From: Macrostomum lignano
Lineage: Eukaryota
Reading direction: 5' to 3'
Assembly (NCBI GenBank): GCA_002269645.1
Contig: NIVC01002129.1
Location: 62,001-126,000, forward strand
DNA length: 64,000 nucleotides
Within the stretch, counting starts at the first letter, position 1. The number at the start of each line of letters is the position of its first letter. This document shows, in pieces, positions 39,023-63,070 of the stretch. The position numbers were made by a program, and so were the translations under genes. The notes beneath the pieces are model-generated. The model was given only the letters and a program-made list of their open reading frames with translations. It was not told the origin of the DNA and did no database searches.

Positions 39023-39419
39023 TAACTTTATTTACAATTCAGAACGAGTCAATTATGGATGGAATGTGCTTATCTGTTGTCGCAAGATGCAATAACTCGC
39101 TAAGCACCGCCACCAAGTATTAGAACGTCGAGTGGCGAAAACACGGCTAGCCAGCCAGGCTGCTGGGGTGCTGAAATTGAACTCAATTGGTTGCATTGAA
39201 CAGCATTCCTAAGTACTATCTTTTAATAAAAATTGGACCAGTGTGCAATGCTGTTGTTTAACTTATTACAGCCTGCCAAGCCTATTGGCTGATAATGACA
39301 CTTCTCTGAAACCTCTACAACTGAGCTCTACTGTTGTAAACTCATTTGATCATGATCAAATGGTATAATCATTAAATAAGGAAGAAATTGTAGCGCAAGA
39401 TTTTCTATCCAAAATTATT

Positions 39420-39625: not shown

Positions 39626-40004
39626 ATGTTTATTAGCTCGTAAAACCGCATTAGCGCTCAACATTAGCGCAACAGCCGCAACCCCCCGCTTCGTAGCCGT
39701 CTCAGCCGGGGCGGCGGCGGAGGGGGGGCGACGTGTCAGTGGAAAAAGACCATTTCTTTGGGCCATCTTGAAACTATAATGATGAATTGCAACCTTACAA
39801 CATTATGCTAGTGCATGTCCCAAAACTATAGTGCACATGTTCCCCTCATACTACTTATAGTATCCTACCAGAGATCCTACCACGAGTATCTATGATTTAT
39901 GACACTGAGAATAGATTTGGGACACTGAAAATTGCGGCACAGCAAGAATAAGATAAGAAATGATGATAAACTTATATAATAGTCACTCATGATAGTCAAA
40001 ACAG

Positions 40005-42036
40005 TTAACATGGATAATAATGGCATATCCAATACAACATGTTCCCGAATTGACGCTCTTGGAACAGCCGGCGCCATAAAAACTCTTGTGGGTACATCTC
40101 GAACAGGCCATTCGCAGTACCATGCATCCCCCAGTACTTAGCCTTGCAGTTAGCCCATGTACCCTCAATGGTGTTTGTATGGATGGTAGGATCATTAGGG
40201 TCAACAAACCAGATAGAGTGATTAATGGTCATATTGATGTGTTCCTTATTACCAGTCCTTGGATAATCAAGGAACAATCACTTCTAGCTCTTTAGCTAGG
40301 CAACCCAGTAATCAAATGAATGTATTCAATTACCCTGATTCCTGGTGAGATATCTCCTTTGTTCTCTCAGTAGATCTCGTGTAGGTCTCTCTCCTTGTCT
40401 TCCGGAAGTGTTAACAAATTGAATCTGTTGTTCGGTCCTGCTTATTCTTCTACTTCCGATGAAGTTGTTCCGGCCGGTCGTCAGGATTCCGGCCGGTTGT
40501 CAGGACCAATCAGAAGCTTCGATTTAACAATAGGTACCCTGCGCCGAATAGCGGTATCAGTTAAGCCTTCTTCTTCTAGCAGTGCCTCGATGCACTCTAG
40601 GTAATGCTCCGGATATCTGTAGTAGCTCCTCTTAGATCTACTAGGGTAGTCCTTCGGGCGACTACAGCCAAGGGAGTCTCAACAGACTTAAAAGTCTCAA
40701 TAGACTTTAATGATCTCGAGTCTCAATAGACTAGAGCGAGACGTCTCTTGCAACAACTGGCGCAAATAAGAAAGGCTTACCGCAACAACCGAACCGAGTC
40801 TCGATTGACTGGTTAACTAGGATGTCTTTCTAAAGACACCTCTTCGGAGCGCTCCTCTTCCGTGGGGAGAATGACTCCGGTGCCGCGTTGGGCCGCTTGT
40901 ATTTATAGACTTTTTCTTCATGAGTCACTTGTTGCGCTACAAGGGGAAATAAGATTGATTGCGTTTGAAAATAGTAACATGACTCATTTTGTTACTAAAT
41001 ATAGTAACATGAATCATCCTGCTGCTATAAATAGCAACATGAATCACTCTGTCGCCATGAACAGCAACATGATTCATTCGCTATAAATAGGAACATGATT
41101 CATATGCTATAAATAGCAACTTGCATCATTTTCAGGTTAAAGTACGCATGCATGCACTAGCTTACTTAACAGTAGTTTCTACGGTTTTTACTTTTAACTT
41201 TTAACGGGAGGTAGAACACTCTACAACATGATTGGCCAGTTGATTATAGGCCGCCCACTGGTCAGTGATCACTCGGGTGCCTGGTAATATATGCTGGTTA
41301 ATGATAGGAACCAGAGTATTAGCCGAGCGATCTGGAATGACTACCATTACACAATGGTTTGTACCATGTTCCACCATGCCCAGCACCCAGTGGCCCTCTT
41401 TGTATGCACCCTGGTGGTATTTCCTGTGCATAAATTTGCTCTTGTCGATCTCGACTTCTCGACCTGGTCCACCGAGCTGCACCAGATGGTCAAGGATGTA
41501 CTGGGCACATATGTCGCAAACAAAATTTAGCCAGTCTATGGTAGTACTCCACGACCCAAAGTGGCACTCTCGCATAAAATCCGTTGCCCTGGTGTTCCGG
41601 GCAAAGAAATAAATGAGATCAACCAGCTGTATCAGTGATAGGTGACTCTTGGCAAAGAATGAGCCTGTCCTTATGGCCCTATGTCACTGACACATCTTGC
41701 AGGCCCAACGCCAGCCATCGCTACAGTCAGCAGCTTCGTGGCAATGTAGGCTCATAGCGATGTTGCAGTTCTAGCACTGCAAAGAGTTCCGGATTAGCCC
41801 ATAACAACTGAGCCAGCGCATTGCCGATTGCGTGTCTGGTATCAGCAGTACCAGCTCCCGATGACTGACATCCAGGGCAGCCAATGCATTGGCAGGTTCA
41901 ATTTCTGCAGGTGGCACCTCCGATTGCTGCTGCTGCAATCGGAGGCAGCAGCAACAGGGGCACCGTTCACAACCCCTCCGATAGCCAACAGCGGGAGGTC
42001 GAAAACTTCAGACTCGGGGTCACTATCATAGGCCAT
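40005..42036 (-). pseudogene. Merlin/ISXO2 (IS1595-like) DDE transposase, with stops and split by solo LTR1
   Basis: N-terminal WLSCYGLIRNSLQC*NCNIAMSL...DGWRWACKMCQ*HRAIRTGSFFAKSHL; core GGPGREVEIDKSKF..RKYHQG...WVLG...DRSANTLVPIINQHILPGTRVITDQWAAY; C-terminal NHSIWFVDP..HTNTIEGTW...QEFLWRR; start codon tentative. Confidence 0.9.
40235..41225 (-). mobile_element. solo LTR1 (991 bp)
   Basis: TG...CA ends (minus strand TGTAG...CATCA); 4-bp flanks ATAT/ACAT; removal restores transposase frame QLANHMTINHSIWFVDP; minus-strand TATAAATA near 40910-40917 and TGA(C/G/A/T)TCA repeats. Confidence 0.85.
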
Positions 42037-42420: not shown

Positions 42421-43039
42421 TTTTTAGCTTCCGGGGGCACCCCGTTGGGGTTGCGCCAGACAAATATGCGGTGCGTTTGCAGTGTCGGCCAGCGACTACT
42501 TGATGTTGCCTCGTAGTCGCCTCCCGGCCATTCCCTTGGGAATCGGGCGACTCCCTCGGTGGGGTCCGTGGTGCCGGATGTCTTCTTGCGTGACCTGTGT
42601 CTGGGCGTCCGCCTTCATGCACGGTTGCCCTTGCACAGAGACATCCATAAAACAGACGCCCGGCCTTCTTTGTATGCAGGCCATTGTACTGGAATAATTT
42701 TGGCTGTTAATTAAGTCTTGTTTTGGCATTGTACATACACGGCTAGCCTAATGTATGCTGGCGGGGTTGCGGGCCTCCGCCGGTTTTATTTACGGATCGT
42801 ACCCCTACTGGGGGGTCTTATCTCTAACTTTGCTTTTTAGCAAACCTTTTTATTTGCCCAAACCTTTCCTCCTAATTTCTAATCCCTTTACTCCCTTTAC
42901 TCCGCTTTGCTTTGCTTGAGTTGGAGTTGCGCTTCGCTCAAGCAACAAGCGTTGTCTACGAGTACAATGTAATATTCGGCGGTCTATTTGACAAGCAGCT
43001 GCAGATCATGGAGCTTCGCGACGTCGTGCCGGGTACAGC

Positions 43040-43510
43040 ATGGAAGTGAATCTGAACATGTTGCAGGGTGTCAGTGATAGATTTTTGCGGTCAATTATTA
43101 CAAATCTATGTATGGGACTGTTTGGTGTTGTCTTTTTGGGTGTGTATCCTCAGGACTCGATTAGAACTCTTGGACAATTTCCTTCAGATGGTAAAGACTA
43201 TTTCTTTGTGGCGAATACAGACAATTCGAATCTTCCTGGTAGGCATTGGGTTGCGGTTTGAGTGAGTAGTAGGCGGGTTAGGGGGCGCTGTGGATGAAGA
43301 GTCGGGAAATATTTTGATTCGCTTGGTTTAAATCCACCGAAAAATCACTCAACCCAATGCCAATGCCATTAGAGGGTGGTTGGGGCGAGAATGTGGGGAT
43401 TTTTGAAATGTGGGGTCCTACAGTCGATTTGCTATTCAGGATCCTCGGACTCGTCATTGTGGTACGAGCGAGGTGGGTGTCGTATTTGGGTGTTGTTTTA
43501 TTTGTATTTC
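43040..43510 (+). pseudogene. adenain-like (C5) cysteine protease of a Polinton/adintovirus-like element
   Basis: FLGVYPQD...FFVANTDNSNLPGRHWVAV, in-frame KYFDSLG after stops, frameshifted IQDPRTRHCG; H, D, Q and C catalytic motifs in the expected order. Confidence 0.8.
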
Positions 43511-43942
43511 AAACTGACTCGTGGTGGTAGCCTTCTATTTCTTTTAACGCATGTTCTTGGTTGTGGGCCTTGACGAGGAAATGAGTTTCGGCGCGCGTAT
43601 TTTTGCCTACGACGCTTTGCAACACAAGTGTTGCCTCTATTCTTGTAATGCAGAAATATACCGAAAATGCGTTTTTGACACGTTGGTTGGTTGATCGAAA
43701 TTTAGATCTTTTCTTTTGTATTCTTTGTGGGTATGGTGCATTGTAGTTAGAATTCCTGTAGAATACCCAACAATTTAGTTCGGTACCGAATGGTACGTAT
43801 GGTACCATTATGGTACCACTTATTAACAATTTAATTTTAAATAGAAAAATAAGGTATGTGCGTAATAAAATATTTGACGGGTACCTTATTATGTATTTTG
43901 CAATTGACAAATGGGGATAGACGTAATTTTCTATTACTACTT

Positions 43943-44151
43943 GCGGTCATGCATGTTTGAGCATAACCATATATGGGGTTAAGCAAATACAGCTGTTAAA
44001 ATCCGGTTCTTTGTTCAAACAATGTAGGGTTCTAAATCATTCTGTTTGCGCGTGATTGCTAAAATAGATATGACTCATTCTAAAATAAATAGACTTTCCT
44101 AGAATATTACTTTAAGTAGAGCATTACGGTATGGTTTAATAACTCCCTACA
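43943..44151 (-). mobile_element. diverged LTR (U3) remnant related to the gypsy LTRs at 55.6/62.6 kb
   Basis: GCGGTCATGCATGTTTGAGCAT, AAGCAAATA, TCTGTTTGC, AAAATAGATATGACTCATTCTAAAA and TAGAATATTACTTTAAGTAG co-linear with 55932-56165; ends CCCTACA; other boundary not found. Confidence 0.8.
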
Positions 44152-44225
44152 TTTGGGCGTCTTTTCTATGAGTACATTTGGGCGTCTTTTCTATGAGTAC
44201 ATTTGGGCGTCTTTTCTATGAGAGA
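44152..44225. repeat. 25-bp unit repeated three times
   Basis: TTTGGGCGTCTTTTCTATGAGTACA. Confidence 0.9.
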
Positions 44226-47200
44226 TTTGTGAATAGGTCAGTGAAGCTTTTCCTTTTTCTCAAGCAACATCCATTGATCCGGCGCGACAGTTTAGGCAGG
44301 TTATTACACCATTCGCCGATGTTTGATGATAACACTCTTGACAAAGTATTACCTGACAACATGTCATACTAACAGGAGTGGTTGGTGTGTGTTGGCAGAT
44401 TTGGCAGACTGGTTCGTTGTTTTCTTAGGGAGGTTGATCTTGGTTTAGTGGAGCCATAGCTTGAGTTGGTTGAGCCCCAGCTTGAGTTTGATGTTCTTGG
44501 ATATCTTCTACAAACTCATCCACTCGTCTCTGTGCCTCCTGACACACTTGTCGCTGTTGATGATATTTCTAAAATATAGATTAGTAAGTTAGATCTAATA
44601 TTAGATCGACTTTCTGCAAGCGGGTTTGTGGTTTTTTTCTTTCAACTATAGTGAGGTGAAATGATGTGTTGGAGAGTAGTATATTCAGTACTCTCCGTTG
44701 CCTCTAGGTGTTTGCCCTCTTGTTGCCCTCTTGAATTCCGTTCGAAAAAAATGTTTCACAAATCACAGCTCGACAACATGCGATTGTAATGTTTGGTAGC
44801 TGTGGTTCGTGTGGCAGATTGGACAAAGCCCTTGATTATTAGCTAGGTGGTTCTCTGCTTGAACCTGGTTAATTACCAGCTAGTTGATGCTCCATCTCTT
44901 GGTGATAAGCAACCAAGCGCCTCTCTGCTTCCTAAACTCGTCGTTTTTGAAGAGAGAAGTTCTAGAAAAAATTTAGTGCGCTTGTATAACTTTTTTGTAA
45001 ACTAAAATCTTATAATGGAAAAAACTTCCAACTTACCTTTAGCTGATTAAAGAAGCGCTCTTCATTAGCCAAATCTTGTGGGTTATACTCCAAAAAACCT
45101 TGAGGGGAATATCTTAAAACATTCAGTTCCTATAGTGCTGCCACAAATTTTGCTCACGACTTCTAAGAGTTGCTCTAGCTGCAGTAAGCCTCTCGAGCAA
45201 ATTAGAAAAGACATTGTAAGAATGATATTTTGTAAGAAAGACAAGTTTGTAGAAAAAAGTAACTAGAATTTCGTTTGTGGCATTTCTTAAATATATTTTC
45301 ATGACAATAAAAAGTTCTATTGTCGTAATGTTACCAGCTTCTAATATTTTAAAGGGTGGTCTCCAGTGCAGCGTCTGGGTCCAGTGAAGCTGAAATCCGC
45401 GTCAGCTCAGCACGCGTGCCCGACACGTTGACAACTGTTTTGAGATGTTTCACGAGCTGAACATACCACACATACCACATGCTAGCTGCACACATGGTAA
45501 CCCAGGAAAACTGTCAAACGGGCCCGCATGTCGTCTTTCAAGTTAATCCTGTAAAGATCCAATGGTTTGCGGCCACTGTTGCGATTAGCTGGCTGAGCTG
45601 CAAACGTTCCGCATGCTGTCGCAGTTAAGCCTCTGACAGATTCTTTCACATGGTTGAGTAGATGTCATGACGGGGCTTCTGGCACAAAGTGCAGCAAATC
45701 CCTCTTAGATCAACATCTACTAAAATCTCTTGACACATAATGCGCTTACATCTAAAATCAACTATCCCAATGCAATACATACACCCGCTGATCTAAGGGG
45801 GATAACATCCCGCTGTGCCGACCGCCGTCGACTCGAGAGGTGTGTGTTTGCCGTCGATTCGATGTCGAGCCTTTTCCGGGCTAATGGATGTCGATTCGAC
45901 GGCAAACAGTCGACATGTTTTCGACGCTTATTCGACATATATTCGGCTACCTCTTCCCTGATTCGACACGCATTCGAAATGCATTCGACATCTAATATCG
46001 TTGATATTACATACATATCTATATGTAAACATGTGGCTTATGTTTTTTAGGCCTTGATCGTGACAGAAACAATAATTTATAGTAGCTAATGACACATTCT
46101 ATTAGCATCTGAAACAAACAAATGTAAGAAATTTGTTTATAGATTTTCAGTCATTGTAACAAAGTGCAAAACAAATTTCCATGTTAACAACAACAGGTTT
46201 TGTTAGGTCCAGAGCAACATGTATTTTAAAGTTAAAATTAGAGTAAGCACAAGTTATACCATAATTAAATTCGCACTTTGAGTAACAAAAAGTGCTTAGC
46301 AGCGTCTATTGAAGGTGCCAACCAAAGCTTCAACGCCATTTCAGGTTTCTTGCTGTTGCTCAGCTCAGGTTGTACATCGCTACAATGTACATCGCTCGCT
46401 TAGTTAATTATATAAGTCGGGGCTGGGCCAGTTTGAGCCCTAAGAGTTTTTTGACTAGCCTTACACACTGACTCTTGTCAACAACCTAACACTTTCGACT
46501 GGGGAAGATTGATATCTTCAAAGCATTTGCTTTCGAGAAGAACGCAAGTTAAATTCCCGAATGATTCTCTTTTTTATTTCCTTTCGGAAGCCCTGATGGC
46601 ATTGCGAAGGCTTTTGGATAACTTCTGTCCTCGTTCAGTAGCAGTGCACCGCACTAAGAAGCCACGCTCACAGGCCAGTCGGTGGAGTCTTTCAGTTGTC
46701 TTCCTTCGTCTAGTGGGTCGTTAGCGAGTGATGCTATATACATGATCCTCAATTCGGCCTCCCCCTGATCAGCCAAGACATGAAATCCGTCGATATCTGG
46801 TAAGGTTGGTAAAGGCGCAAAATGCATTGCACGAATTAAGGAATTAAATAACCCTAGAGGACATTGACTTGAAGATTCTTACAAGATCTGACTCAAACTC
46901 CCTTTACGGACTTGCAAGAAATTACCAGATATTACCTATGTAAATGTATACGCAGATCTTATCTGATCTTGCATGTTCTTGAAAGACACGATCTATTAAG
47001 ATCTTACTTAGCACATCACGATCTTGTAAGATTGTGCAAGATATGCCAAGACAGCAGTCTACACTGCTACCAACGGATCTTGGTTATCTGGTCAGATCTG
47101 GGCTGAACCCAGGCCAACTTATAATAATGCAGTTTAAAAGAAAGTATAACAAAGAAAGTAATCATAAACAGATTTCAATTTTTTAATATACATCAAAATC

Positions 47201-47873
47201 TCTTTTAATTGTACTAACTGCTTGATAAGCTAGAGTGAGTGTATTTATTATTTTACCATTTGTAGAGCATGTACATGGTCATGTGTAAATAAACAGAAAT
47301 ACCTAATAGCATTTGAAAAGTAAAAAATGAATAATCAAAGCAATAGCGTAGTCATAGATCCCACAGGTGTGTAGCAATCCTAATGCATCAGAGTCTTCCA
47401 TGGGCAGTTCTAATTTTGCCAAATCTGCGGGTGATATGAGCATATTAAAAAAATAAGATTATACGAGCGTAATTAGAATATTAGAAGCATAGGAGGCCCA
47501 AGCAGGCCTAAGCTTAAAGTTATAATTAATAAATCTGATATGATCAAAATGCCTATACCTATATTAAAAATAATTAAGTATAAGAAATTCATTTGCCTTA
47601 GACTTAGATCTTCATTAACTGATCTTGGACAAGCTAGCCAGACCCTAATAAGACAATTGATGTTTTGGTATTGTCATTTAAAACTCCTCTTCTAGACACC
47701 GCATGGTTAGCTGAAATTAAAAAGGAAAGGTTAGATAAGGTACATATTTTTGAAAATGGTTTATAATTTACACTTTTGTTTTAGAAACTTATCATTTAAA
47801 TAGGCTAAATGATTAGCCACCATTTATACTATATAACCATGGCATAGCTATATTTTAATATGAACTCAATGTA

Positions 47874-48592
47874 CAGGGTGGTCCAGAAAGGTCTCCCGTA
47901 CTACAAACATAGTTTTCTCTGCACTGGATTGATGGATTGAACTGAACCTTGACCTGCCTAAACTTTATTCTGAATATATTGTTTTGTCTAAAAATCTTAG
48001 CAATTGCTAAAAAATCATGAAGTTACAGCAGTTTTTCTCAAAAACACCGTTTTTTGTTAAATCAGTTGGGTTTTAGCACAATCTGCTATGCAGCTGTCAG
48101 TCAGTGCTCCACATGACGACCTTTGTTGTCGATACAAGTCTGCAGGCGCTTCTTAAAGCTATTAAGGCTGTTGACAGCAAAGTCCACTGGCATATCCTGC
48201 ATTACCTGCGTTATGCGTGCCTTAAGCTCATCCAGGCTGTCCACTGGCTGTCGGTAGACGTTGTCTTTCACCCATCCCCAGACAAAAAAGTCCATAGGGT
48301 TGAGATCAGGACTGCGTGCAGACTCTTCAATTAATCCAGCCAGGATGCCATTTTAAATCTTTCAACTGGCGTGTTAGTCATAAAGCTGGAATGAAATGTG
48401 CACATCAGTAAGTGAAACGTTGTTTTTTAAAAAAACTGCTGTAACTTCATGATTTTTTAGCAATTGCTAAGATTTTTAGACAAAACAATATATTCAGAAT
48501 TAAGTTTAAGCAGGTCATGTTTCAGCCCAATCCATCAGACCAGTGCAGAGAAAACTCTGTTTGTAGTACGGGAGACTTTTCTAGACCACCCG
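47874..48592 (-). mobile_element. internally deleted Tc1/mariner element
   Basis: about 180-bp TIRs CAGGGTGGTCCAGAAA / TTTCTAGACCACCCG, TA on both sides, transposase C-terminus RSPDLNPMDFFVWGWVKDNVY...ELKARI...KRLQTCIDNKGRHVEH. Confidence 0.93.
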
Positions 48593-49459
48593 TATGTTAA
48601 AAATAAGATTAAAAGATAATAATGATTAAATAAATTTTAGGCCTAGTCTCGAATTTACTAAATTAAAATAAAAAAGTGGCTAGGGCCTAATTATACAAAT
48701 TCAAGTGTCTGTTAGGTCCACTATTTTATTTTTGACATCACATCAACTACTAACTGAGTTGAGCTAGGCTACCTCATAAAAAATCTGGACTAGGCTAGGC
48801 TTAGGCCCTAGCTAAGTTAATTGAAGCTCAATTTTACACTAAATTTAACATTACTAATGAACCAACATGATTTAGCCCCCTTCCAATAAAAGTATGATCG
48901 AATCATGAAATCTTACTTTTAAAATATGCTGCCTATTTTCCTATATGGTGACTAGTAGTCCGTCCATCAGTTTTACTCTCAATTTTACTCTTAATCGAAT
49001 CATAAAATCCTACTTTTAAAATATGCTACATATTTTCTTGCATGGCCATTCTATCCATAAGTGCTGATTTAATTTGGCTGCTGAAATCAAACAGTGCAGA
49101 ATTTTCTGTCAAAAATTTTGGACTTTGCTCAGCTCTTATACAATTCTGAATGCCTGCATTTTCAGGGCCAGCTTTTACCCCAAACAGAATTTACAGCCCA
49201 ATACAGAGAACTTTTGGGATGACCCTCGTATGTACGGACGAGTTAAAAGTATTGAGTATAGCAAATGCTTCCTAATAAAACAATAGATATGCAATAATGT
49301 ATTTTTTAAATAAGTAACTGCGTATTGTATTCCTAATTTTTATTCTAAACTAACTTATTGGAATGGGCGTGTCCTGCAGTCTAAGCTACTGGTTTTTATT
49401 CTGTCTTCTACTTTACTTATTATCCATTTTAATAAGAAATCCATCCATTTTACTCCTAT

Positions 49460-50046
49460 TTGGTAAGTAGAATGCGAGGGGGCTTTTGGGACAAAATTTT
49501 TCACGTCCTCCATAATCCTATTAAATCCATCCATATTATCCCCGACGGAATCAGAAAAAAGGAGTGGGACGCACTTGCTCCGAAAACTTCGAACCTAATC
49601 TCATTAAATCCATCCATATTATCCCTGAATCAGAGGGTCGCACTCGCTTACAAAACGTCATCCATAATCCACCTAAATCCACCCATATTATCAGAGCATA
49701 GCAGGTGTTCTACATAATCCACTGACATCCACCCATAGCATCTTCGAAACAATCAGAAAATAATCTATTCTTCTCCCCACATTCAATTCGCAACGCGGAA
49801 CCAGATCCCAAAGACTTTAAAATCATCAGCGCAAGGTCCTTATTTCACGAGTTTTGTCGTGGTGAAGGAATACTAGTCGAGACAACACGGCGGTTTGTAG
49901 CGGTAGCACTGCCAATATCGCGGCAACGATTTGGCCGTAGGCTTGTTTATTTGAGTAATAGTCGGATTGCCACGAAGGTTAACAGTTTCAATATAGTGGA
50001 CTACTGTACTGGGCACTGGCGGCAGCGCAACAATAAGTTGAGTTAA
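49460..50046 (+). pseudogene. degraded, frameshifted ORF, probably part of the virus-like element
   Basis: MRGGFWDKIF...DGIRKKEWDALAPK then shifted frames NNQKII...RNQIPKTL / RSLFHEF; family resemblance is only impressionistic. Confidence 0.25.
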
Positions 50047-50570
50047 GTTGAAGGCGGTTGAGCACGATGAAGGTGATCCCAAGTGGCGAATGATGGCAGT
50101 GAGCAAACAGTGCGGTGGCACTAGGAGAATAGACAGGCAGTGGAAAGGCGTAAACAGGTCTGGCTGGCGAGTCGGGCCCAGACAGGGTGGGCCGTGGCGA
50201 GAAATAAGGAGAGAGAAGGAAAACGAGAGGCCACAAGAGTGAGGAGGCCCCCAGCCCGCCGCCAGGCGGGGGTTAATAAAGAGCGCAGAAGGGTTAGCAT
50301 AATACACGCGGAGAGTTTTCATTGGCTGGCGGGGGAAAAAACAAGAACTTGAAATTATCGATCGTGCTAGATTTTACAGACGAACGCAAGGTTTATCAAA
50401 TACACAGTGAATTAGCAATTGATACAGATTAGTTGCGCGCTACTACAAGTAAACGTGAGAATACACAATTGGAAATTTTAAATGAGAAATTTTAAGGAAA
50501 ATTGCAGTCCAACGGCCCTTTTGCGGGACCACTTTAAACCAGCAACGTCACACTTACCCTTTGGAAACAA

Positions 50571-51517
50571 TTAAATAGTAAGTCTGCCCTGTGCATCAGC
50601 AGAGCTGGCACTGGTGCTATTCCACACCCTTTTACATGACTCGGAATTGAACTTTTCATAATTTACTTTTGACCAATTAGTGATTACTTTGTACATTTCA
50701 TCACCACTGTCTATGTCGCGGAGTATGAGCCCTACCTTGTACCAAGAATCATAGTCTTGGTTTTTGTGTTGTATTATACTTAACAACTTTGAAGCTCCTT
50801 CACAAGTGGGTGATGGAACGGTGCTTTTTAGTGCCTGTTTATCGGGTTCTTGATTTTATTTTTTATCCTGTGGCTTTATTTATCTATTTATCTCATCAAG
50901 AATTACATCTGGCATGTGTATTAAACCTTTGGGCTTTGTACGTTTGTATTCCTTAATTTTACCAAATAATGGTAACAAAATAATATGATAGTAATAGTCA
51001 CCAAATAATAATAGAAACCTGGTGGAGCAAATACTAAGGCGGGAATATCAAAACCCACACTTTGTTGAATCGTTACTTTCAATACATCTACCTTGTTAAA
51101 GTAAAAGTGGTGACCCTTGTTTGTCTGAACAATCCAATCACAATGAGTCATACACAGTTCATTCAACCTAGGGCATAGTTCAGCATTATCAATATCGATT
51201 ACGGTTATATTTGAATTTCGAGTATCTATCCAAATCATGTTGTGTACCTCTGGTCGAAATGGTGGGGAGGTTGAATTTCTATCCTCTGTGGTTGGCATTC
51301 TTGATGGTATTTTTTTCTTTGTTTTACTATTCCATGTTATACTGCAACTTCCGAATCTAAAATTAAGTTCTCCATAGAGATTAATTAGTTTATCGTACGA
51401 TTTTGTGTGTTTTAAATTTGTCAATCTTGGTAGTGGTGGTGGTGCATCATGGTTTTGAAACGGATCCTGTACGATCACAGGAGAGACACTTGAATCGTTT
51501 TGATTTTTTTCTTCCAT
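50571..51517 (-). pseudogene. AEP bifunctional primase-polymerase (Prim-Pol) plus PriCT-2 domain, frameshifted
   Basis: ITVIDID, IVQTNKGHHFYF and GFDIPALVFAPPG motifs; downstream QDYDSWYKVGLIL...WSKVNYEKFNSESCKRVWNS...RLTI fits PriCT-2. Confidence 0.8.
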
Positions 51518-51529
51518 TTTATTAAAAAA

Positions 51530-51877
51530 AACTTTAAAAATAACATTTATCGGTTTCAATTTTCTTCTCAAGGGTTATGGGGAGTTTGAAAATGTTCAAC
51601 TTCAGCATGACGAAAAATTTGTCATTCCTTATGTGCTGTCTCGAAACCAATGCCAATTTATCAACATGTGCAAGATATACTCTGAATGAATGCGAATATG
51701 GGGGCATTTAAAATCGGTGTGTTTTAATATTTCTGCTTTATATTACATCGTAAGCTTTATCAATTTCTTTAATTAGTCGAGACTTTCGAGTGGGGTTTTT
51801 AATTTGAGAGAAATTTATAATAGAATCATAGTACTTTTGTAGCAGAACATTTCGTACATTTGGGTTATTAGCTTCCA
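51530..51877 (-). pseudogene. small decayed ORF upstream of the primase, unknown function
   Basis: MEANNPNVRNVLLQKYYDSIINFSQIKNPTRKSRLIKEIDKAYDV, then a frameshifted continuation. Confidence 0.3.
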
Positions 51878-52277
51878 TTTTTTCTAAGAAAATTTAGCAG
51901 TTACAATCTAATTTTGGAAGTGAGCCCACGGCTGAGGCGGCTTGGCAAATGAGGGGTAAATTGTCTTTTATTAGATTGCCCTACAGACCCTAAGCGGTAA
52001 GAGAGAGAGACTAGACCCCCTCCATTATATTTCTGTCATTCTTCTCTCAACTCTTTAAGCTCGTGTGGGTTGGTTGTGTGAGTCATTTCGTTGCTCTTTT
52101 GCATAGAAAAATAATGACGCGTGGACACAGAAAGAATATCATACACAAAAGGTGCATTTGATGTTAAAAGTAACTATTTAGACAAACACTTTTAATATTG
52201 ACACATTTTTATTACCAAGACACACTACTACGGCAGAATTTCTAATGTGTAATGTGTAAGTATAATGTAAGCATAGT

Positions 52278-52691
52278 CTAAAGTAGAATGCGTAAAGCAC
52301 ACTCACGATTCAAAGTGATAATGTAACTAACATTTAAGGGGGCGTAGCGCAAAATCGGTCTGTCACTCAAGTCTTGTAAAACTTCCCACTGTTTCCTCAC
52401 AACTCGAGGCTTTTCATCGCAGTCGAAGTAGCAGGTTGGTTTGTAGAGAAGCATCGTTTCGAAATTCACATCGCTTTTTGCCTCATCCTCAATCGTTTTT
52501 TTAAACCGCAGTAGAGTAGCAAAGGAGTAGCCTGTGTATACGATGGCGGGGAATGTAGAGGCAAACTTGAAAAAGTTGTGCAGACGTCTGACGTAGCTGA
52601 AGTCGATTCCAAGCTTTTCACCAACAGCTTCATCGCTTTTTAACTCAGCTAGCATCTTATCAACAATCCGCCCGCGCTTGAATTCAAGCAT
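52278..52691 (-). CDS. hypothetical protein (137 aa) of the virus-like element
   Basis: non-repetitive ORF; its ATG directly follows the TAA of the upstream frame (TAAATG at 52694-52689). Confidence 0.45.
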   Translation of the reverse strand: MLEFKRGRIVDKMLAELKSDEAVGEKLGIDFSYVRRLHNFFKFASTFPAIVYTGYSFATLLRFKKTIEDEAKSDVNFETMLLYKPTCYFDCDEKPRVVRKQWEVLQDLSDRPILRYAPLNVSYIITLNRECALRILL

Positions 52692-53068
52692 TTATTTTAG
52701 CACGTCCAGCGACTCCACAATACCTCCAAGGAGATCGAAATGCTCGACGAGATCTTTGTCAGCCATATTATCAATCTTGATGCCTAGCACATCGCGACAA
52801 TCCTTGAAGTCAGTCTTGACTATGCATCTCCTTCGCATAATCACCTCCAGGTTCATATCAATTTTAGCAAGTAGCTAGCCGATTCCGATGTCGATTTGCC
52901 ACTGGAGGGCTTCTTTTCTTTTGGTGTAGTCTTCAGTTTTTTCAAAATTGTAAGTAGACTTTCCTTTTCATGTTTCAATAGGCCGTTAAGAGAAATAGCG
53001 AGAGAAGGTTGATCAGAAGAACTCACTTCTTGGATTTTCGAGACAATTTTGCTTTCGATCTTGTCCAT
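52692..53068 (-). pseudogene. hypothetical protein, frameshifted
   Basis: MDKIESKIVSKIQEV...KKPSSGKSTSES, then shifted LLAKIDMNLEVIMRRRCIVKTDFKDCRDVLG...LDVLK*. Confidence 0.4.
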
Positions 53069-54220
53069 GATGATGTAGTTGATGTAGACGGTGCAAAAAG
53101 TAAGGCAAATGTGTAACAGAGTGGAGAAAATTCTTTTCGGTGGTAGATATTTAGAAGACTCATGCTGCGTTTTATATTCATATATACGCCTACATCTTCT
53201 CAACAGGTTTCAGCGTGTTGGGCGTGTGTAGCTAACTTGTGTGCTATATTTAGTATCGTTGGATATTGTCCTCTCTTGTAATTTTTTTCTTTAGACTCGT
53301 TGGGGTCTAGATTTGTATGAAACTACATACAACTTCATTCATAAGACGAATTGACAATACCATATATGGACTTGATAATATTTATGAATGAAAAAGTTGC
53401 CAGTGGAGAGGATGGGTGCTAGTTTTATTATAACTGACTGAATATCTAAAGCATTTCATATAAATAATGGTTTACTGAAGGCAATTTCATATATATAAAA
53501 TTTACTATCATTAAATTGGATGACACTTTCATATTGTATATACCTAAAATTGCATTGAATTGACCCGTGAATCCAACTTTTCTCATGGTTTTAGAGCTGG
53601 AATCGTGAAAATTGCACTTTTTTTAATTTTTGAAAATCACAAAAAAGTCGCTGTTTTCAGACCATTTTCACCTGTTTTTAGTCATTTTTCACCTGTTTTT
53701 AGTCATTTTCAAAATGAGTGACGGCATGAGGGCGAGGGCACCCTCCTTTTTAAAAAGTATAAAAATTCTGAAAAATCTGTTCTGTGAAATATTTTACATG
53801 CCAATGCCCCCACATGCCCTCACTGAGTCATCCAGCGAGCTGGCGCGCAATGCACCCGAGCAATAAGTGTGGCGCAGCCCCTTATCATACTACTTCTGAC
53901 CCTGGCTAATAACAAGTTCTATTACAAATGAAAGGGTGCGATAGCAGAGGTGATTTCCCTTCCCGCAAGCACACAAAGTGTGGATACTTATAATTACTTT
54001 TTCGAGAATGTTTTTTTTCTAAGCGAAAACACTTTGAGAAACCTAATCCAAGTAGACCAGACAATAAACTGTTCCCTTCTAAACTATCCTATGATCTCAC
54101 TGTGATGAGAGTTGTCTTGCAAGTTCATAAAGATGCTGAGATTGAGTTTAAAAATGACACATGGTGCAGAGAGTTGGGCTTTGAAGCAAAAGTTTACAAA
54201 GAAGGTTTGTACTTAGCTTC

Positions 54221-55127
54221 TGAAGTACTACTCCTTCTCGGGTTCTTGAAGATCTTCCTAGAAATAGAACCCGCTGCTCCTGAAGAAGCTAGATAGCACC
54301 GTTGTACTACCTATCGATTTGACTGAAAATGAACCTAAAACGTAAGCCTTGACTTGGTAGGGTTGCTGCCACCTTGGTGTGCGGACTCGACGCGTCGGCA
54401 GAGTTGTCTATCCGTCACCTGAAATAAAATAACGAAAACGCTCGGAGCAAAGGCAAATCTGAAAATGTCTCGACAGTCGATCGTCTTAGTAGAATGCTGC
54501 TCGAACCTGAAAACCTGAAAAACCTGAAATGAGAGAGGAGAGCTCGGAGAAGGCTTCACGAGTCAGCCACGATGCTCCGCGAGACGACGCAGTCTGGAGA
54601 AAAATGGCTCGCAGATGCTCCGTATTTATAGCCGAGCGGACCCCCAAAAGTCACGTGAGTTTCATGCGGTGAGCGCGTGAAACTTCCTTATTTGGGCATT
54701 AAAATCATGCGAGCGACGCGTGATCCAAGGCCAACTTCCAAATAAGGCAACCCTGTCACGCAGCAGTGGCGTGACTCAAGGTCAGTGGCCATGCACAGAG
54801 TGCGTGCACAGTCACGTGCTTAGTCTGTGCTAAAAATAGAATCGTGGGCGAATGAGTCATCCTGTTTACTCCCTCTAGGCAGCCCTTACACTCCGCGCAG
54901 GTGATGAGTCATCCTGCTACGCCTCCTCGGCGCGGGAGGGGAAAACATTGAGTGTGGCTGCCGCGCCCTCTCAGGCGATGAGTCATCGGGCAGTAAACAC
55001 TCAGGCCCAGCACAGGGTATCTCTCTCACTAGATCAGGTGGACTGAGCAACTGTGCAGCGGACCACAGCACTCTTAGGGAAAGCTAGTGAATGCTGCTGA
55101 ATAACCAGTTAGCAGCCAGTCACTACA
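54221..55127 (-). mobile_element. solo LTR2 (907 bp)
   Basis: TGAAG...CTACA ends on +; perfect 4-bp TSD CTTC (54217-54220, 55128-55131); minus-strand TATAAATA at 54623-54630. Confidence 0.9.
54686..54985. promoter_or_regulatory. LTR enhancer: two CArG boxes and four AP-1 sites
   Basis: CCTTATTTGG 54686-54695, CCAAATAAGG 54738-54747; TGACTCA/TGAGTCA at 54772, 54853, 54905, 54979. Confidence 0.7.
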
Positions 55128-55579
55128 CTTCAAATATTGCCGACATTGTAAAAGGTTTAAATATTTTAATTCGTAGCAATTTGAGTCTTGATTGGGTCTT
55201 CAAAGGTAAACGTACAAATGTACTTTTTAATATATCAAACTCTGTTTCTGGCGATCAGATGTTGGTAGAGAAACCCAATCCAGTGAAGAGAGTTGTTTTG
55301 AGCAATAAAGAAATTAATGAGATTGCTCTGAAGTTTGAAACAGAGTATGGAGATAGAGTCGATTTTAATGGTGAAGAGTTTGCGTTAACAATTGTGATTA
55401 AGAGAATGTGATGTTAAAAAAATACTAGCTACATGTACCAAATAAATAAGTCAATTAAAAATTTTTTGTTCAAAAGTCACTAGAAGCAGTGTTTAAATTT
55501 AATTAGATTAAATTATATTTCATGTTAGTTTTATTTATTAGGAATTAGAACAATATTTAGGTGTGCATTTAGTAGGTGT

Positions 55580-56195
55580 TGAAGAGTTTAAGAGTGGTGA
55601 TCAGTCACTCAGAAACTCCCACTTCTAGACACTGGGGAACAAGTGCCTAGGTATTTACTAGTTCAAATAACTTACTGCAGCGGATCCTTTAGTGGCTTGT
55701 AGGCTTCTTGGTTTGGCTTAGGTGACTCAGTACCTCCGGGAGTCCTTGACTTTTATCAATTGGACAGGTATGGTCCCTCAGAGATTGGTCTTCTTATTTC
55801 TTCAGTGTCTTCTTAGAGACCGCTCCGAGTCTGAATTTTTTACTTGAATTTTCACTTATATTTATAGCAAAATTTTGGAGAAAAACCGGTTTGGGATTGG
55901 GTATTTACTTAGGTCAAAAATGTTTGATTAAGCGGTCATGCATGTTTGAGCATTACCAGATATGGAATTAAGCAAATAAAACTCACGAGAACCGGTTTTT
56001 TGATCAAATAAACGTCGGTCCTACGTAGGGCTCTGAGTCACTTCTGTTTGCATGTGACTCATTCTAAAAATAGAATTTCTAAAAATAGATATGACTCATC
56101 ATGACTCATTCTAAAAATAGATTGCGAGTTTAAATTGATTTAGTTAGAATATTACTTTAAGTAGTGCGTTTTGTTATAACTTACTGTTCTCTACA
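55580..56195 (-). repeat. 3' LTR (616 bp)
   Basis: minus strand TGTAG...CTTCA; TATAAATA 55859-55866; AP-1 motifs at 56034, 56055, 56092, 56102. Confidence 0.85.
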
Positions 56196-56207
56196 ATATC
56201 TCCCATG
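56196..56207 (-). other. polypurine-tract-like sequence abutting the 3' LTR
   Basis: minus strand CATGGGAGATAT|TGTAG; short and imperfect. Confidence 0.45.
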
Positions 56208-56448
56208 GTTACAAAAAATTCGTCCCGAATTTAAAGTTGGAATAATAAAATTATGGTTTTATTGACAGAAATGAGCATGAATTCACAGTAATGATGTGGA
56301 ATAAATATGTAAGTATTTATAGAGCAAGAGCGGATTGTACATATCATAATTGCGACATTAGCTGGAAAAAAACCCATTACCAAATTAATTTAGTACGCTG
56401 CGTTCGCGTCGAGTTAAGCGTGTTAGAGTAAGGGTTATAAATTATTTG

Positions 56449-57045
56449 TTACTCGAAGGCATGCCTTAGCATGGCCTTTAGCCGCATTACTAAGGTGACC
56501 ATTGGCCAGTATAGGAACTGAAGTGGTGTGTAGCCTGTATCTTCTGTCCTGTCGATGATGGTGAGATAGGCTGTCACGTCGGTGGTGATTGTAGTGTCCA
56601 CCGTGATGTTGCGGCCCATTTCTAGCAGTCTGTCACGGAAGACGACTTGGCGTAAGGTCACGGGCCATGTCCGGATGGCCCACGTCAGGTCAGCTGTGGA
56701 CATTGTGGCTATTTGTTCCGTGTGGAGCTGGGTTTCCGGAACGATTGGTATTCTACGCGTGTAGTCTAGCGTGGTGGTTGTCATTGCCCAACCGCACTCT
56801 AGGCAGTGCCGAATGTCGTGGCGTGCGATTGTTTCGGCACAAGAAACGCAACTCCAATGGCCCTGGGTGCACAATTGGAGTTGGGGGAGGTCGCCGCAAA
56901 CGATACACCACACCCTGTCTTGTCGACAGAGTGGACATCGTGTAATTTCCTCTCTTTCGCCACAGTCGTTGCAGGCCAGATGGCCCCATGCGCACGTAGG
57001 CACAATATACGGCTTGGTGTCGAGGCATATCGGGCAGTCTTCCAT
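56449..57045 (-). CDS. accessory ORF B: tandem C3HC4 RING-RING protein with a helical C-terminal domain (198 aa from the MEDCPIC start)
   Basis: CPICLDTKPYIVPTCAWGHLACNDC..CPLC (C-x2-C-x10-C-x3-H-x2-C-x2-C-x8-C-x2-C) and CIVC..CTQGHWSCVSC..CLEC (spacing 8/3/2/2/11). Confidence 0.88.
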   Translation of the reverse strand: MEDCPICLDTKPYIVPTCAWGHLACNDCGEREEITRCPLCRQDRVWCIVCGDLPQLQLCTQGHWSCVSCAETIARHDIRHCLECGWAMTTTTLDYTRRIPIVPETQLHTEQIATMSTADLTWAIRTWPVTLRQVVFRDRLLEMGRNITVDTTITTDVTAYLTIIDRTEDTGYTPLQFLYWPMVTLVMRLKAMLRHAFE

Positions 57046-57061
57046 ATCTGTGGGCAAGATA

Positions 57062-57719
57062 TTAATTACTTTCTGATTCGGAACTAATATACTGATACGA
57101 TTCTTGGGGTGGTAATATGTAAGATAAGTCGTCATTACGCAGAATGAGTGCAGGTAGAGTTGTACAGAGGATGGGGCATGGGTGAAAATTCATATCATTA
57201 ACAATTTTAAACAGCTTATGTTCAATTTCTTGTGGAGATAATTGCCGGAGTCTAGAACCGTAGGAAGAGGAATAGCGAACGAGGTATTTACGTGTTTTAT
57301 GAGCAACACGTGGTATGGGCCATGATCTGAGGCGGATAATTATAGCATGTGATGGAAAAAGAGCATAAGTGAATGGGTGAAGCTGTAGGTTATACGAGCT
57401 AGTCTGCTTGAATGCATGCAAGTTTGTTGTTAACTTTAGGTAAAGGGGTGGTATCGCATATAGGACACTGACAAATGGAGCGATAAGCAAGCTTCTTAAT
57501 ACATTGTGTGCACATAAAATGTTGATTTAAGCAATATTGTTCAGTGCGCCAGGAGTTGCATATCATGCATTGACGGAGATTACCTCGACACATAGGGCAA
57601 TTTTTTAAAGGTTTTTTGTAATGTGCAAGGCTTAAGCAAGAACCACACACCTGGTGTCTATTGACACATATACAAGGTAGTTTACATGAAAATTCTCCGA
57701 GACAGATAGGACAATCCAT
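57062..57719 (-). CDS. accessory ORF A: paralogous RING-RING protein whose C-terminal domain is in the +1 frame (frameshift near 57440)
   Basis: CPIC..CVNRHQVCGSC..CPMCRGNL and CMIC..CLNQHFMCTQC..CPIC (spacing 8/3/2/2/11, as in ORF B); the shifted frame gives NLQLHP...IRLRSWPI, aligning with ORF B ETQLHT...WAIRTWPV. Confidence 0.82.
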
Positions 57720-57861
57720 TGTCGTGTTTGTCGAAGTTGTGTGAGTGTTTGTAGGAAAACAAGGATTTAGTCGCCTCTTACGACAAGCTTGAGGAAGCTG
57801 TAGTGCTATTATTTATCCCGGTCACTACACGGGGACATGAATAGAATAATTTAACGAGGTC

Positions 57862-60800
57862 TTAGGTTGTACGTATGACCGACAGGTGGTGCGTTTGTTG
57901 TTTATGTTTCGGCGTGTGCAGTGGCAATTTGTTTATTTGTTGTTTTGTGTGGTCTGGATTTTGTAGGTCTGGGAGGAATGTAGTGTCGTTAGTGATACGT
58001 TTTAGACGTTGAATGTGAACATAGAACTGAGGTTGATGTGGATCCTGGATATTAGCGAGGCGTGCCGTTGTTGCCGATACCAATGCCGTTACTCGGAATG
58101 GTCCTTTGTATTTAAGTGCGTGTTTATGCGTATGTTGCGCAGGGTAATGTAGGTAAACGATGTCTCTGACTTGTAGAGTAGATGTATGATTGCTGGTGGT
58201 GACTACTGCCTGTTGATTTTCTAAATTGTGTTTCGCGATTTGCCATGCCAGGTGTAGCTGCGAAGTAAACTTTTGTAGTGTTGTTGGCGTTTCCACGTAC
58301 TGAGAAGGTAACAGTTTTTGGACTAGTAGGCTTGGTGGCTGAAAGTCTCGAGAGAACATAAGGAAAAACGGTGTGTTCTCTGTTGAACGGTGTACTGCAC
58401 TGTTGTAGGCCATTGTCACTGACTGCAGGTATATGATCCAATCTTCAGGTTGCTTATAGACGAAGTGTGTCAACATTTCGTGTAGATTTCTATGGAATCG
58501 TTCTACTAGGTTAGCTTTTGGATTGTAGGTGGAGGTGAAAATTTGTTGGATATTTAGTAGTTTAGCAGCCTGTTGGAATAGTTGCGACGTAAATTGTGTA
58601 CCATTGTCGGAGGTTAGTGTCTTTGGAGTTCCGTATTTGCAGATAATTTCATTGTAGAAGGCCATTGCAACTGTAGTGGCTGTAATGTCAGGCAGTGGAA
58701 TGGCAACAGCAAATTTAGAGAACACGTCTAATGCGGTAAGAATGTAAGTGTAATCGATAGCATGTTGTCGAGCTGGCGGTAGTGGTCCAGTAATATCAAG
58801 TGATACAATGTCCCATGTGGTTGTCTTTGGTACGGATTGAAGTTCTGGTTTTTGTCTTCTTCCAGTCTTTGTTGAAGCACATGAGTGGCATTGTAGGCAG
58901 TAATTGCGGATGTCTGCATTCATTGTTGGCCAGAAATAGAACTGGGCTATTCTGTGGATTGTTTTCTTGGCAGATAAATGTCCGGCTAGGAGTGTGTCGT
59001 GTAGTTCATGTAGGATTGCAGCGCGATAGTTGTATGGTAGGTACAATCTTGGGGTATTATTGTGCAGCCAGTAAAGTGCTAGTTCTCTGAAGATGAGATT
59101 ATTGCCTTGTTTCCGTAAAAATTTCTTTTCGATCTTGGTGAGCGGTTTTTGCATTTCTTCTGTGTCTTCGTATACAGCTTTGTAGAAATTATCTTCTTGC
59201 TGCGCTTTCAATAGATCCATCATGGTTGGAATGGGGTGGACAGCATTGACTTCATATGCTCTTGATAGCGCATCCGCGGCCTTGTTTGTAGGTCCTGGTT
59301 TATAGATGAGATGAAAGTTATAGTCCTGAATTTTGAGGACCATCCGGATAAGTCTGTTATTCGTTTGTCCTTTTGTTTTGACAACATGAGTCAGCGGTGC
59401 GTGGTCTGTGCGGATGATGGTTGGTAGCGGTGATCCGTAGATGTAGTAATGAAACTGTCGAAGAGCGAATAAAATCGCTAGTAATTCACGTTCGGTGGCA
59501 GACCATTTTGTTTCATTTGGACGCAGGGCTCGGCTGATAAAGGCAATTGGTTTTTCCTTTTTTTGATATGTTTCTTGTAGTAGTACAGCTCCTAAACCAC
59601 TTCCTGATGCATCAGTTTCGATAATAAACGGCTTTTGGAAGTCTGGGTGTTTGAGCAGAGCGTCGCTGGTTAGTTGCTGTTTAATTTTATCAAAACTGTT
59701 TTGCTGTTCCGTTTTCCAATTTTCTTCCTTCCATTTCGGTAACTTCAACAACTCATATAATGGCTTTGCAGTTTGCGCGAAGTTAGGTAGGAATTTTCGG
59801 AAGTACTGTGCTAATCCAAGGAATGATTGTAGTTTTGTAAGTTTTGTAGGCTTGGGGAACTTCTTGACCTTTTCGACATTATTAGGGTCGGGTGAAATTC
59901 CTCTTGCTGAAACATGATGTCCCAGATATCGGACTGATTCTCTGCAGAATTTACATTTTGTAGGTTGTAGTTTTAGTCCTTGTTTCTGAAGTAGAAAGAG
60001 AGCTTGTTCCATGACACTCAGTAGTTGTTCGAAATTATCGCCGAAGGCGAGAATATCGTCCACATAATGCAATAGATTCGTACATCCCGCTAGCATGTAG
60101 GCTGTTAAGCGGCTCATGGTCGCTGGGGAGTTGGAAATTCCCATTGGGCTTCTCTGGTACGCAAAGACTTCTCCCTTGTAGGTCTTGAATGCTGTATATT
60201 GTTTCGATTCTTCTTCAAGTTCAATTTGCCAAAAGCCATGTCGTAGATCAAATACGGTGAAGAGAGTAGCTGTATTCAGTCGTGCCAATAGTTCCGAAAT
60301 CTTTGGTAGACTTTGTTGATCTGTGGGGATGTATTTATTTAGGACTCGAAAGTCACAGACAAGTCGTCTTTCATTTGTTTCTTTTTTTTCAACTAGTAGA
60401 CACGGTGATGAATATGCTGAGACTGTTCGTTTGATGATTCCGGCCTTGAGCATTTTTTCGATGATTTCATCAAAATGTTGTTGCAGATGTTTTGCTACCG
60501 GGTATGGTTTGCATTGGATGGGTTCCTGGTGGGGTAGCAGTTCGATTTTCTGCTTGATGTCGCGAGAGCGACCAATGTCGTAATCATGATGACAAAAGAC
60601 GTCATTGTACTTCCAAAGTAGATCTCTGACCTGTGTTTTTTGTCCTTCCGTAATGGGACTTTGCGAGAGATCAATTTGTTGTAAGAATTGTTGCTTTGAC
60701 ATCCTTGTTGGTTTTGTATGTTGAATCAGCATGACGGAGGCTTGTGTGTTGAGGTGTCCCATGCATGTTCCTGCGTAGATCTTAACGGGATGTTGGTGAG

Positions 60801-62562: not shown

Positions 62563-62566
62563 TTAC

Positions 62567-63070
62567 TAGTGGCTTGTAGGCTTCTTGGTTTGGCTTAGGT
62601 GACTCAGTACCTCCGGGAGTCCTTGACTTTTATCAATTGGACAGGTATGGTCCCTCAGAGATTGGTCTTCTTATTTCTTCAGTGTCTTCTTAGAGACCGC
62701 TCCGAGTCTGAATTTTTTACTTGAATTTTCACTTATATTTATAGCAAAATTTTGGAGAAAAACCGGTTTGGGATTGGGTATTTACTTAGGTCAAAAATGT
62801 TTGATTAAGCGGTCATGCATGTTTGAGCATTACCAGATATGGAATTAAGCAAATAAAACTCACGAGAACCGGTTTTTTGATCAAATAAACGTCGGTCCTA
62901 CGTAGGGCTCTGAGTCACTTCTGTTTGCATGTGACTCATTCTAAAATAGAATTTCTAAAAATAGATATGACTCATCATGACTCATTCTAAAATAGATTGC
63001 GAGTTTAAATTGATTTAGTTAGAATATTACTTTAAGTAGTGCGTTTTGTTATAACTTACTGTTCTCTACA
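62567..63070 (-). repeat. 5' LTR, missing the last about 110 bp (U5 side)
   Basis: near-identical to 55690-56195; joins directly to env-derived sequence. Confidence 0.92.

Follow-up and report, generated by a model that had tools for sequence, protein, structure and literature searches.

Family C Polintons of Macrostomum lignano: a protein-primed polymerase that has lost its proofreading motifs, paired with a primase-helicase gene

Overview

We analysed a 64,000-nucleotide stretch of the Macrostomum lignano genome (G000:C2129:62001-126000, contig NIVC01002129.1), referred to as the window; other C-numbers denote contigs of the same genome (G000). The window contains broken pieces of three unrelated Polinton families, named A, B and C, and a primase gene fragment found in it belongs to family C, full copies of which are present elsewhere in the genome. 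With a probability of about 0.6, we interpret family C as a protein-primed Polinton in which the DNA polymerase (PolB; pPolB, protein-primed PolB) has lost its proofreading motifs and a separate primase-helicase likely unwinds the template. The latter consists of an archaeo-eukaryotic primase (AEP, or Prim-Pol) domain, a PriCT-2 domain and a D5/superfamily 3 (SF3) helicase. A sister family, D, has undergone neither change.

Structure and gene content of family C

Full family C copies were delimited at C2232 (18,718 bp) and C2696 (17,814 bp). They are bounded by inverted repeats of 591 and 582 bp, respectively, which are 98.5-98.8% identical, have AGT-repeat termini and feature the ends AGTAGTAGT. 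Target duplications of 6 bp (GACGGC in C2232, CGCAGG in C2696 and GCTGTC in C944) flank all three copies of which both ends were fetched and assignable. Pfam domains identified in family C include rve, Pox_A32, a double jelly-roll (DJR)-like major capsid protein (MCP), D5_N, PriCT_2, Prim-Pol and Endonuclease_7, the last of which is an insert within PolB. E-values are 5e-11 for the rve integrase (PF00665), 2e-13 for the DJR MCP (PF21738) and 8e-6 for the A32 ATPase (PF04665); no Pfam match of the MCP to virophage capsids was found. The elements also encode a cysteine protease, covered by a Polinton protease profile that matches adenain, a 246-aa open reading frame (ORF), a fibre-like protein with an F5/8 domain, a phospholipase A2 (PLA2)-like domain and an Eco47II-like nuclease. 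A further gene is a candidate minor capsid gene by size and position, and returned no Pfam, PDB or named match.

The PolB and primase-helicase genes lie tail to tail. Together with the 246-aa ORF they form a block that occurs in two orientations relative to the capsid block, as evidenced by the comparison of C2232 and C2696. Ten loci have the same-strand arrangement, about 7 kb from the capsid gene, and four the opposite-strand arrangement, at a distance of 10-13 kb.

The genome searches scored the best 48 of 1594 candidates for PolB and the best 93 of 556 for the capsid, and the counts are therefore lower bounds. The primase query gave 89 matches, pieces included, and open frames of 819-841 codons are present in five copies. 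Among the 48 merged capsid loci, 18 have a primase match within 25 kb; conversely, a capsid match accompanies 18 of the 53 primase loci, the remainder being fragments, contig ends or loci outside the examined set. A helicase is found within 3 kb of PolB in 22 of 27 merged PolB loci, and in all 16 loci where the 3' end of PolB is present. At least 17 family C capsid genes are 99-100% identical, which indicates a recent spread of the family. An earlier note, made from the window sequence, had envisaged an unusual animal capsid-encoding element equipped with an AEP, and had counted its reading as refuted if primase and capsid-module genes were never together in intact elements. The two do co-occur, as intact family C copies join the primase-helicase, the capsid module, the integrase and a pPolB.

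Loss of the proofreading motifs

Family C PolB keeps the N-terminal RGSG region, the vOTU Cys and His residues and the polymerase motifs A, B and C. The top fold match of its AlphaFold model (pLDDT 72) is the Phi29 polymerase (E 6e-12); no Pfam match to PF03175 was obtained. Exonuclease motifs were compared in an alignment of family C, family D and 12 outside homologues. ExoI, which is Y[ACS]DFE in relatives (YADFE in families B and D), reads YAILD in family C, where the first Asp is absent, and is identical in all 13 readable family C rows, drawn from 12 contigs. ExoII reads LNESGKD instead of HN-x-x-x-YD. Approximately 88 residues, including the ExoIII YxxxD motif, are missing, the corresponding stretch being 45 aa long in nine family C loci and 133 aa long in two family D loci. 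A wider alignment was made from the best 120 of 232 homologues and families C and D. Among 100 sequences covering this part of the protein, 96 have all four exonuclease carboxylates. The remaining ones are family C, two gene models from Mytilus, in which blocks are gapped but ExoI is intact, and a sequence gapped at ExoI. As the active site consists of four carboxylates and the ExoIII tyrosine, according to a passage of a Phi29 review (PMC4974454), family C PolB is predicted to have no exonuclease activity.

In a 42-sequence tree of polymerase domains, in which no mavirus sequence was included, families C and D are sisters (support 0.98) and are nested among proofreading-type relatives. The loss of the exonuclease is therefore derived.

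We attribute the breaks found in many PolB genes to decay or to indels of the assembly. An intron, or any other conserved break, was considered and rejected, since break sites vary between copies and C105 carries an open frame of 1027 codons.

The primase-helicase gene

The family C primase-helicase, about 820 aa long, has the domain order Prim-Pol/PriCT-2/D5_N/SF3. AEP motifs A (DxD; IDID 106), B (TxxGxH; TNKGHH 131) and C (hD; GFDIP 154) are kept in protein P0005 and in the copies read. The protein belongs to a large D5-like family (11,995 representatives at E 0.001) and matches poxvirus D5 and African swine fever virus (ASFV) C962R in PDB (E 1e-24). The structural model is of low confidence (pLDDT 54), and fold matches, topped by D5-like proteins of Bodo saltans virus, were used only for the helicase part.

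The closest relatives (37-45% identity) are unnamed environmental proteins encoded by ENA/JGI contigs of at most 6.3 kb. Four more distant loci have giant-virus-like contexts, judged from their ORFs, and one of them includes an rve integrase. When P0005, A4 and the capsid of family C were scanned against IMG/VR, only two distant loci resembling Polinton-like viruses (PLVs) were obtained, both cut on the upstream side; a metagenome scan yielded 11 loci, the two close ones residing on contigs of 2.9-3.2 kb. None of these 13 loci matches family C PolB or MCP in tblastn, and a second host of the PolB and primase-helicase pair was not found in the IMG/VR scans and the one metagenome scan.

Ratios of nonsynonymous to synonymous polymorphism (pN/pS) were computed against one reference per domain. 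Values do not exceed 0.35 in 10 of 12 comparisons of the polymerase domain, the other two being 0.54 and 0.75, and do not exceed 0.42 in 16 of 17 comparisons of the helicase domain. These low ratios show purifying selection on the two domains; both large genes were therefore functional while the copies spread.

Family D, a sister that retains the proofreading motifs

Family D elements (C2379 and C1429) match 11 of the 16 family C proteins, with 57% identity for the integrase, 59% for the protease and 72% for the nuclease; no match to the primase-helicase was found in family D. Judging from its sequences, family D, which keeps the proofreading motifs and carries no helicase, may serve as a natural control for family C.

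The distribution of the helicase bears on the view of the primase-helicase as a passenger, selfish or neutral, with proofreading lost separately, for instance under selection for a higher mutation rate. Mobile AEP-SF3 genes have been proposed, and 12 copies are reported from Bodo saltans virus in sections of Barth 2026 (10.64898/2026.10.13.758929), the virus whose D5-like proteins head the fold matches of the family C protein. Cause and coincidence are, moreover, inseparable with a single lineage. Against a passenger, every one of the 77 helicase matches of the genome is close to the family C gene, and the 15 family D loci show none within 20 kb of PolB. The tail-to-tail placement of the gene relative to PolB is invariable, the two invert together as a unit, and the gene is under purifying selection. 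We regard a passenger as unlikely.

Two further features are shared by families C and D. A group I intron (RF00028, 71-89 bits) is located near the Eco47II-like nuclease and the integrase in both (L034:326-709, L024:4002-4362 and L118:109-412). The word GGNCC does not occur in the C2232 element, where about 21 occurrences are expected, nor in the counted stretches of C2696 and family D; it is present in families A and B. Dating the residence of the primase gene by the absence of this word was discarded as too weak, the gene alone having 0 occurrences versus 2.6 expected.

Proposed replication mode

We favour a scheme in which replication of family C would start at the AGTAGT ends, the terminal-protein domain of PolB acting as primer. 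The SF3 helicase would unwind the template that PolB otherwise opens by itself, and the AEP would help in re-priming or in copying the displaced strand, without being the main replicase. The integrase would insert the copies, generating the 6-bp duplications, and packaging would fall to the capsid module.

Several observations weigh against this scheme. Exonuclease loss and helicase gain amount to one event in one genome, their link being a single coincidence, and inferring order or cause goes beyond the data. Most copies of both the PolB and the primase-helicase genes carry frameshifts, and the pN/pS comparisons depend on each other through a shared reference. The AEP domain scores below the Pfam cut-off, is poorly folded in the model (pLDDT <50) and lacks the Arg that follows motif C in more distant relatives. 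Selection on this domain is also weaker, with pN/pS values of 0.32-0.68 in 11 comparisons with pS of at least 0.08; closer comparisons are noisy (up to 1.9), and the piece in the window gives 0.81. The AEP is thus the less constrained part of the primase-helicase. Contigs carrying close primase relatives are too short to reveal neighbours, and the two that were fetched were uninformative. The family C insertion in the window, described below, no longer has its left target duplication, and the order of nesting is one that we infer. Finally, PolB may still displace strands alone. The unwinding subdomain of the Phi29 polymerase is presumably the one named TPR2. A structural passage of the Phi29 review (PMC4974454) appears to assign unwinding to a subdomain of the polymerase, and a section of Krupovic 2024 (PMC11161782) takes compensation as a matter of fidelity rather than unwinding.

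The weaker constraint on the AEP also bears on the idea that a replacement of the replicase is under way, the AEP-SF3 protein being the main replicase by now and PolB being either retained for terminal-protein or end functions or on its way to loss. The exonuclease erosion is fixed, the DxD, TxxGxH and motif C Asp residues of the AEP are kept in the copies read, and group 2 Mavericks often have helicase-AEP fusions in place of pPolB, as described in parts of Bellas and Sommaruga 2026 (10.64898/2026.06.19.733378). Yet PolB retains its vOTU Cys and His and all three polymerase motifs (A, B and C) intact, purifying selection is stronger on the polymerase domain than on the AEP, and no complete family C copy without PolB was found among the mapped copies. 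A replacement therefore seems quite improbable to us.

Alongside the favoured scheme of a helicase-assisted PolB, we tentatively consider, though with considerable doubt, that family C is in transition between two replication systems. A PolB devoid of proofreading that starts at the ends and a D5-type helicase-primase that unwinds and primes the displaced strand would then constitute a small fork-type replisome.

Organization of the window

Genes of the window were read by six-frame translation and Pfam, and each was then searched against the genome. Searches with the protease, primase and penton-like genes returned three separate sets of relatives, and on this basis we read the region as a nested graveyard of broken pieces of families A, B and C.

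The primase piece (50575..51574, minus strand) is 88-90% identical in DNA to full family C copies and comprises only the 5' part of the gene, the D5_N and SF3 helicase parts being absent. PriCT_2 (PF08707, E 1e-10) is recognized at 50574-50855 (-) and Prim-Pol (PF09250, E 0.002, a score under the Pfam gathering cut-off) at 50924-51574 (-). A frameshift separates the two domains, and the gene ends after PriCT-2, at about 50575. Upstream, a family C stretch containing part of a 113-aa ORF (51575..51919, minus strand) shows a 91-93% match. A family C terminal inverted repeat (53397..53897) matches both ends of the full copies at 91-93%, and its terminus at 53897 adjoins the family B penton-like gene, a junction spanned by one run X6 contig. 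Primase piece, upstream region and repeat taken together are 88-93% identical to family C. Between repeat and primase there is a broken accessory, or slot, gene (52281..53209, minus strand), which is about 40% identical in amino acids to the genes occupying this slot in families C and D and does not match them at the DNA level.

The adenain-type cysteine protease traces to family A. The gene (43040..43655, plus strand) is broken by stops and frameshifts, and its motif residues, His 43238, Asp 43310, Gln 43434 and Cys 43452/43475, are in shifting frames. Over the first 73 aa it shares 92% identity with an uninterrupted gene of 187 aa at G000:C2529. A profile built from six Polinton proteases of this genome matches ASFV pS273R (9e-8) and adenain (3e-6). 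The protease is preceded by the last ~120 bases (42919..43039, plus strand; 92% DNA match to C2529 and C889) of a 441-aa family A gene that likely encodes the major capsid protein, for which no Pfam match was found. It is followed by the family A right terminal inverted repeat (43653..43941), which ends in TACTACT at 43941 and matches both ends of the C2529 element. The window thus keeps the last kilobase of family A, the protease marking its right end and being 92% identical to the final gene of the elements. Family A elements at C2529 and C889 have PolB and integrase, identified by tblastn, deoxynucleoside kinase and TATA-binding-protein-like genes and 6-bp target duplications. The TATA-binding-protein-like ORF (PF00352, E 8e-7) overlaps the deoxynucleoside kinase ORF (PF01712, E 9e-21) at L094:5502-6693. 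At G000:C1153:20004-33455, two copies of the right-end kilobase of family A, inverted relative to each other, flank host-like genes within a large inverted duplication.

Family B elements, found at C1, C33, C166 and C616, are the source of the penton-like gene and of a left terminal inverted repeat (49466..49842), which begins with AGTAG and matches the ends of these elements at 70-83%. The middle part of the penton-like gene (53905..54220, plus strand) and its 3' part (55133..55411, plus strand) are separated by a solo long terminal repeat (LTR; 54221..55127). The pieces 53905-54199 and 55133-55411 correspond to a single gene of 287 aa, present in the four family B elements that were fetched, with 75-78% DNA identity and 84% amino acid identity over 92 residues. 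The gene directly before it in family B has a weak DJR-capsid match (PF21738, E 1e-4, below cut-off), and the 287-aa gene itself weakly resembles its positional counterparts in families C and D. By position, size and this weak likeness it is likely a minor capsid (penton) gene; Pfam, PDB, homologue names and Atlas (recognition 2281, below 2300) gave it no name. The solo LTR (TG...CA) is flanked by the 4-bp target duplication CTTC and has 90-92% identical copies at C2657 and C1090; two other copies have 4-bp duplications of their own, and the LTR is skipped in one X6 contig.

All three gene identifications in the earlier note, namely an adenain-like protease, Prim-Pol with PriCT-2 and a penton-like gene, are borne out, the penton label at the strength of likely. 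It had also reported the absence of PolB, major capsid, ATPase and integrase genes. No PolB, ATPase or integrase of families A, B or C was found within the window; for the capsid, the ~120 bases of the likely family A gene are present. The compact ORFs that the note called orphans exist, and correspond to the broken accessory gene at 52281-53209 and to cargo of other transposons. Of its two interpretations, the co-location of separate viral remnants was right in kind, the number being three rather than two.

The other interpretation, a single PLV-like virus that replicated with its primase in place of PolB and to which protease, primase and penton all belonged, does not stand. The three genes lie within 12.4 kb, and in a duplicate locus (C262, 99% identical) the gap between protease and penton is only 4 kb. 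However, no two of the genes fit one family, each family has repeats of its own, and the termini found inside the region are of three kinds. Family C offers no DNA match to the protease or the penton of the window, this protease fails to align with the family C protease, and the two genes trace to families A and B, in which no match to the primase-helicase was found. C262 lacks the primase through the loss of 44194-52350. One element spanning the window was rejected by the family assignment of each gene, and we regard this interpretation as scarcely credible.

In our nested reading of the three families, the penton-like gene of family B would have received a family C element, after which both elements would have lost their bodies to deletions and later transposons. 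C262 was also considered as an empty, pre-insertion site and rejected, as its breakpoint cuts the slot gene and no target duplication is present. The order seen in the window is collinear with C2657, C13 and C1884 and is spanned by X6 and X15 contigs, and C262 is read as a later deletion derivative.

The interval between the family A and family B repeats (43943..49465) is filled by unrelated insertions. These include a relic akin to a Gypsy LTR followed by a decayed RING-like ORF (43943-45350), part of which (44721-45307) has an 82% identical counterpart within several family C copies of one arrangement, and a Tc1/mariner-type remnant with 177-bp inverted repeats (47876-48591). IS1595/Merlin-like transposase fragments and a reverse transcriptase fragment are found among 41201-41683, 39983-40277 and 38616-39038. 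A Gypsy-type LTR retrotransposon (55690-63070, minus strand) has near-identical LTRs and two cysteine-rich RING-like ORFs after pol. Its long ORF starts with a weak match to a viral fusion glycoprotein; the element is about 3.5 kb shorter than the C262 copy, and the glycoprotein-pol fusion may stem from a deletion. Beyond it, a slot-gene homologue at 63417-64000 and past the window (L099:1502-2233) has 66-68% DNA identity to family B-associated copies; here the family B element probably resumes on the far side of the Gypsy insertion. The right repeat of family B was not found in the 10 kb following the window.

Insertion of Polintons into or beside other Polintons recurs in this genome, with family C beside or inside family B at C67, C273 and C1113 and beside family A at C1090, which suggests a targeting or tolerance bias. 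Adjoining Polinton genes in this genome often derive from different families, and the window itself is only a relic.

Comparison with known systems

Family C shares with Maverick-Polintons and adintoviruses (Polintoviricetes), as described in parts of PMC8502044 and PMC10748475, terminal inverted repeats, the 6-bp duplication, a pPolB with N-terminal terminal-protein/vOTU region and an HNH-type insert, the rve integrase, the A32 ATPase, the DJR major capsid, the protease and the PLA2-like domain. It differs in the addition of a full AEP-PriCT2-D5/SF3 gene and in the absence of the ExoI Asp and of ExoIII. Sections of Jeong 2023 (PMC10748475) describe exonuclease motifs as conserved over 20,702 and 1,331 integrase-linked pPolBs, a statement made at group level. 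The word "primase" is absent from the main text of both papers.

Mavirus-type virophages resemble family C in having an exonuclease-less pPolB, a separate SF3 helicase and an rve integrase, as excerpts of PMC11161782, PMC3671162 and PMC13215967 indicate. In contrast, the mavirus helicase (S3H) has no other recognisable domain, as a passage of Yutin 2013 (PMC3671162) states, and the mavirus capsid is of the virophage type, while family C keeps a primase domain and a Polinton capsid module and has an animal host. The same source passage describes the combination of pPolB and primase-helicase as uncommon. According to a section of Krupovic 2024 (PMC11161782), helicase gain accompanies exonuclease loss in maviruses and PLVs. 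As family C PolB is nested among proofreading-type Polinton PolBs, its loss looks independent of that in mavirus. Phi29-like protein-primed polymerases need neither primase nor helicase (PMC4974454, in part).

The AEP-SF3 replicases of PLVs and group 2 Mavericks have the same domain order and are encoded beside a terminal repeat in small capsid-coding elements, as portions of 10.64898/2026.06.19.733378, 10.64898/2026.10.13.758929 and PMC11296320 describe. There, however, the gene is described as a replacement of pPolB and is usually accompanied by a tyrosine recombinase, whereas family C has a pPolB under selection and an rve integrase. Because helicase-AEP fusions stand in for pPolB in group 2 Mavericks, in the account given in parts of Bellas and Sommaruga 2026 (10.64898/2026.06.19.733378), the presence of an AEP-SF3 gene is, by itself, no novelty for an animal-type Polinton. 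A figure in Barth 2026 (10.64898/2026.10.13.758929) marks pPolB genomes with a stand-alone SF3 helicase, and the portions of the text available do not mention the exonuclease; scattered helicases in coral elements are noted in a section of Stephens 2024. The nucleocytovirus D5/E5/C962R primase-helicases share D5_N, SF3 and PriCT-2 with the family C protein and are only about 30% identical to it.

In the literature searched, the pairing of pPolB exonuclease loss with a primase-helicase is known from protist virophages and was not found described for animal Polintons. No animal Polinton with an exonuclease-less pPolB and a full primase-helicase was found, although figures, supplements or Repbase could hold one. 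Family C is thus an apparently independent animal case, recently expanded and residing beside a sister family with neither change. The idea of compensation becomes testable through paired natural proteins and through mutation spectra across copies. If family C were indeed an intermediate between two replication systems, the mavirus transition would have been repeated independently in an animal, and the family would serve as a model of the way in which D5-based replication might have emerged from Polintons.

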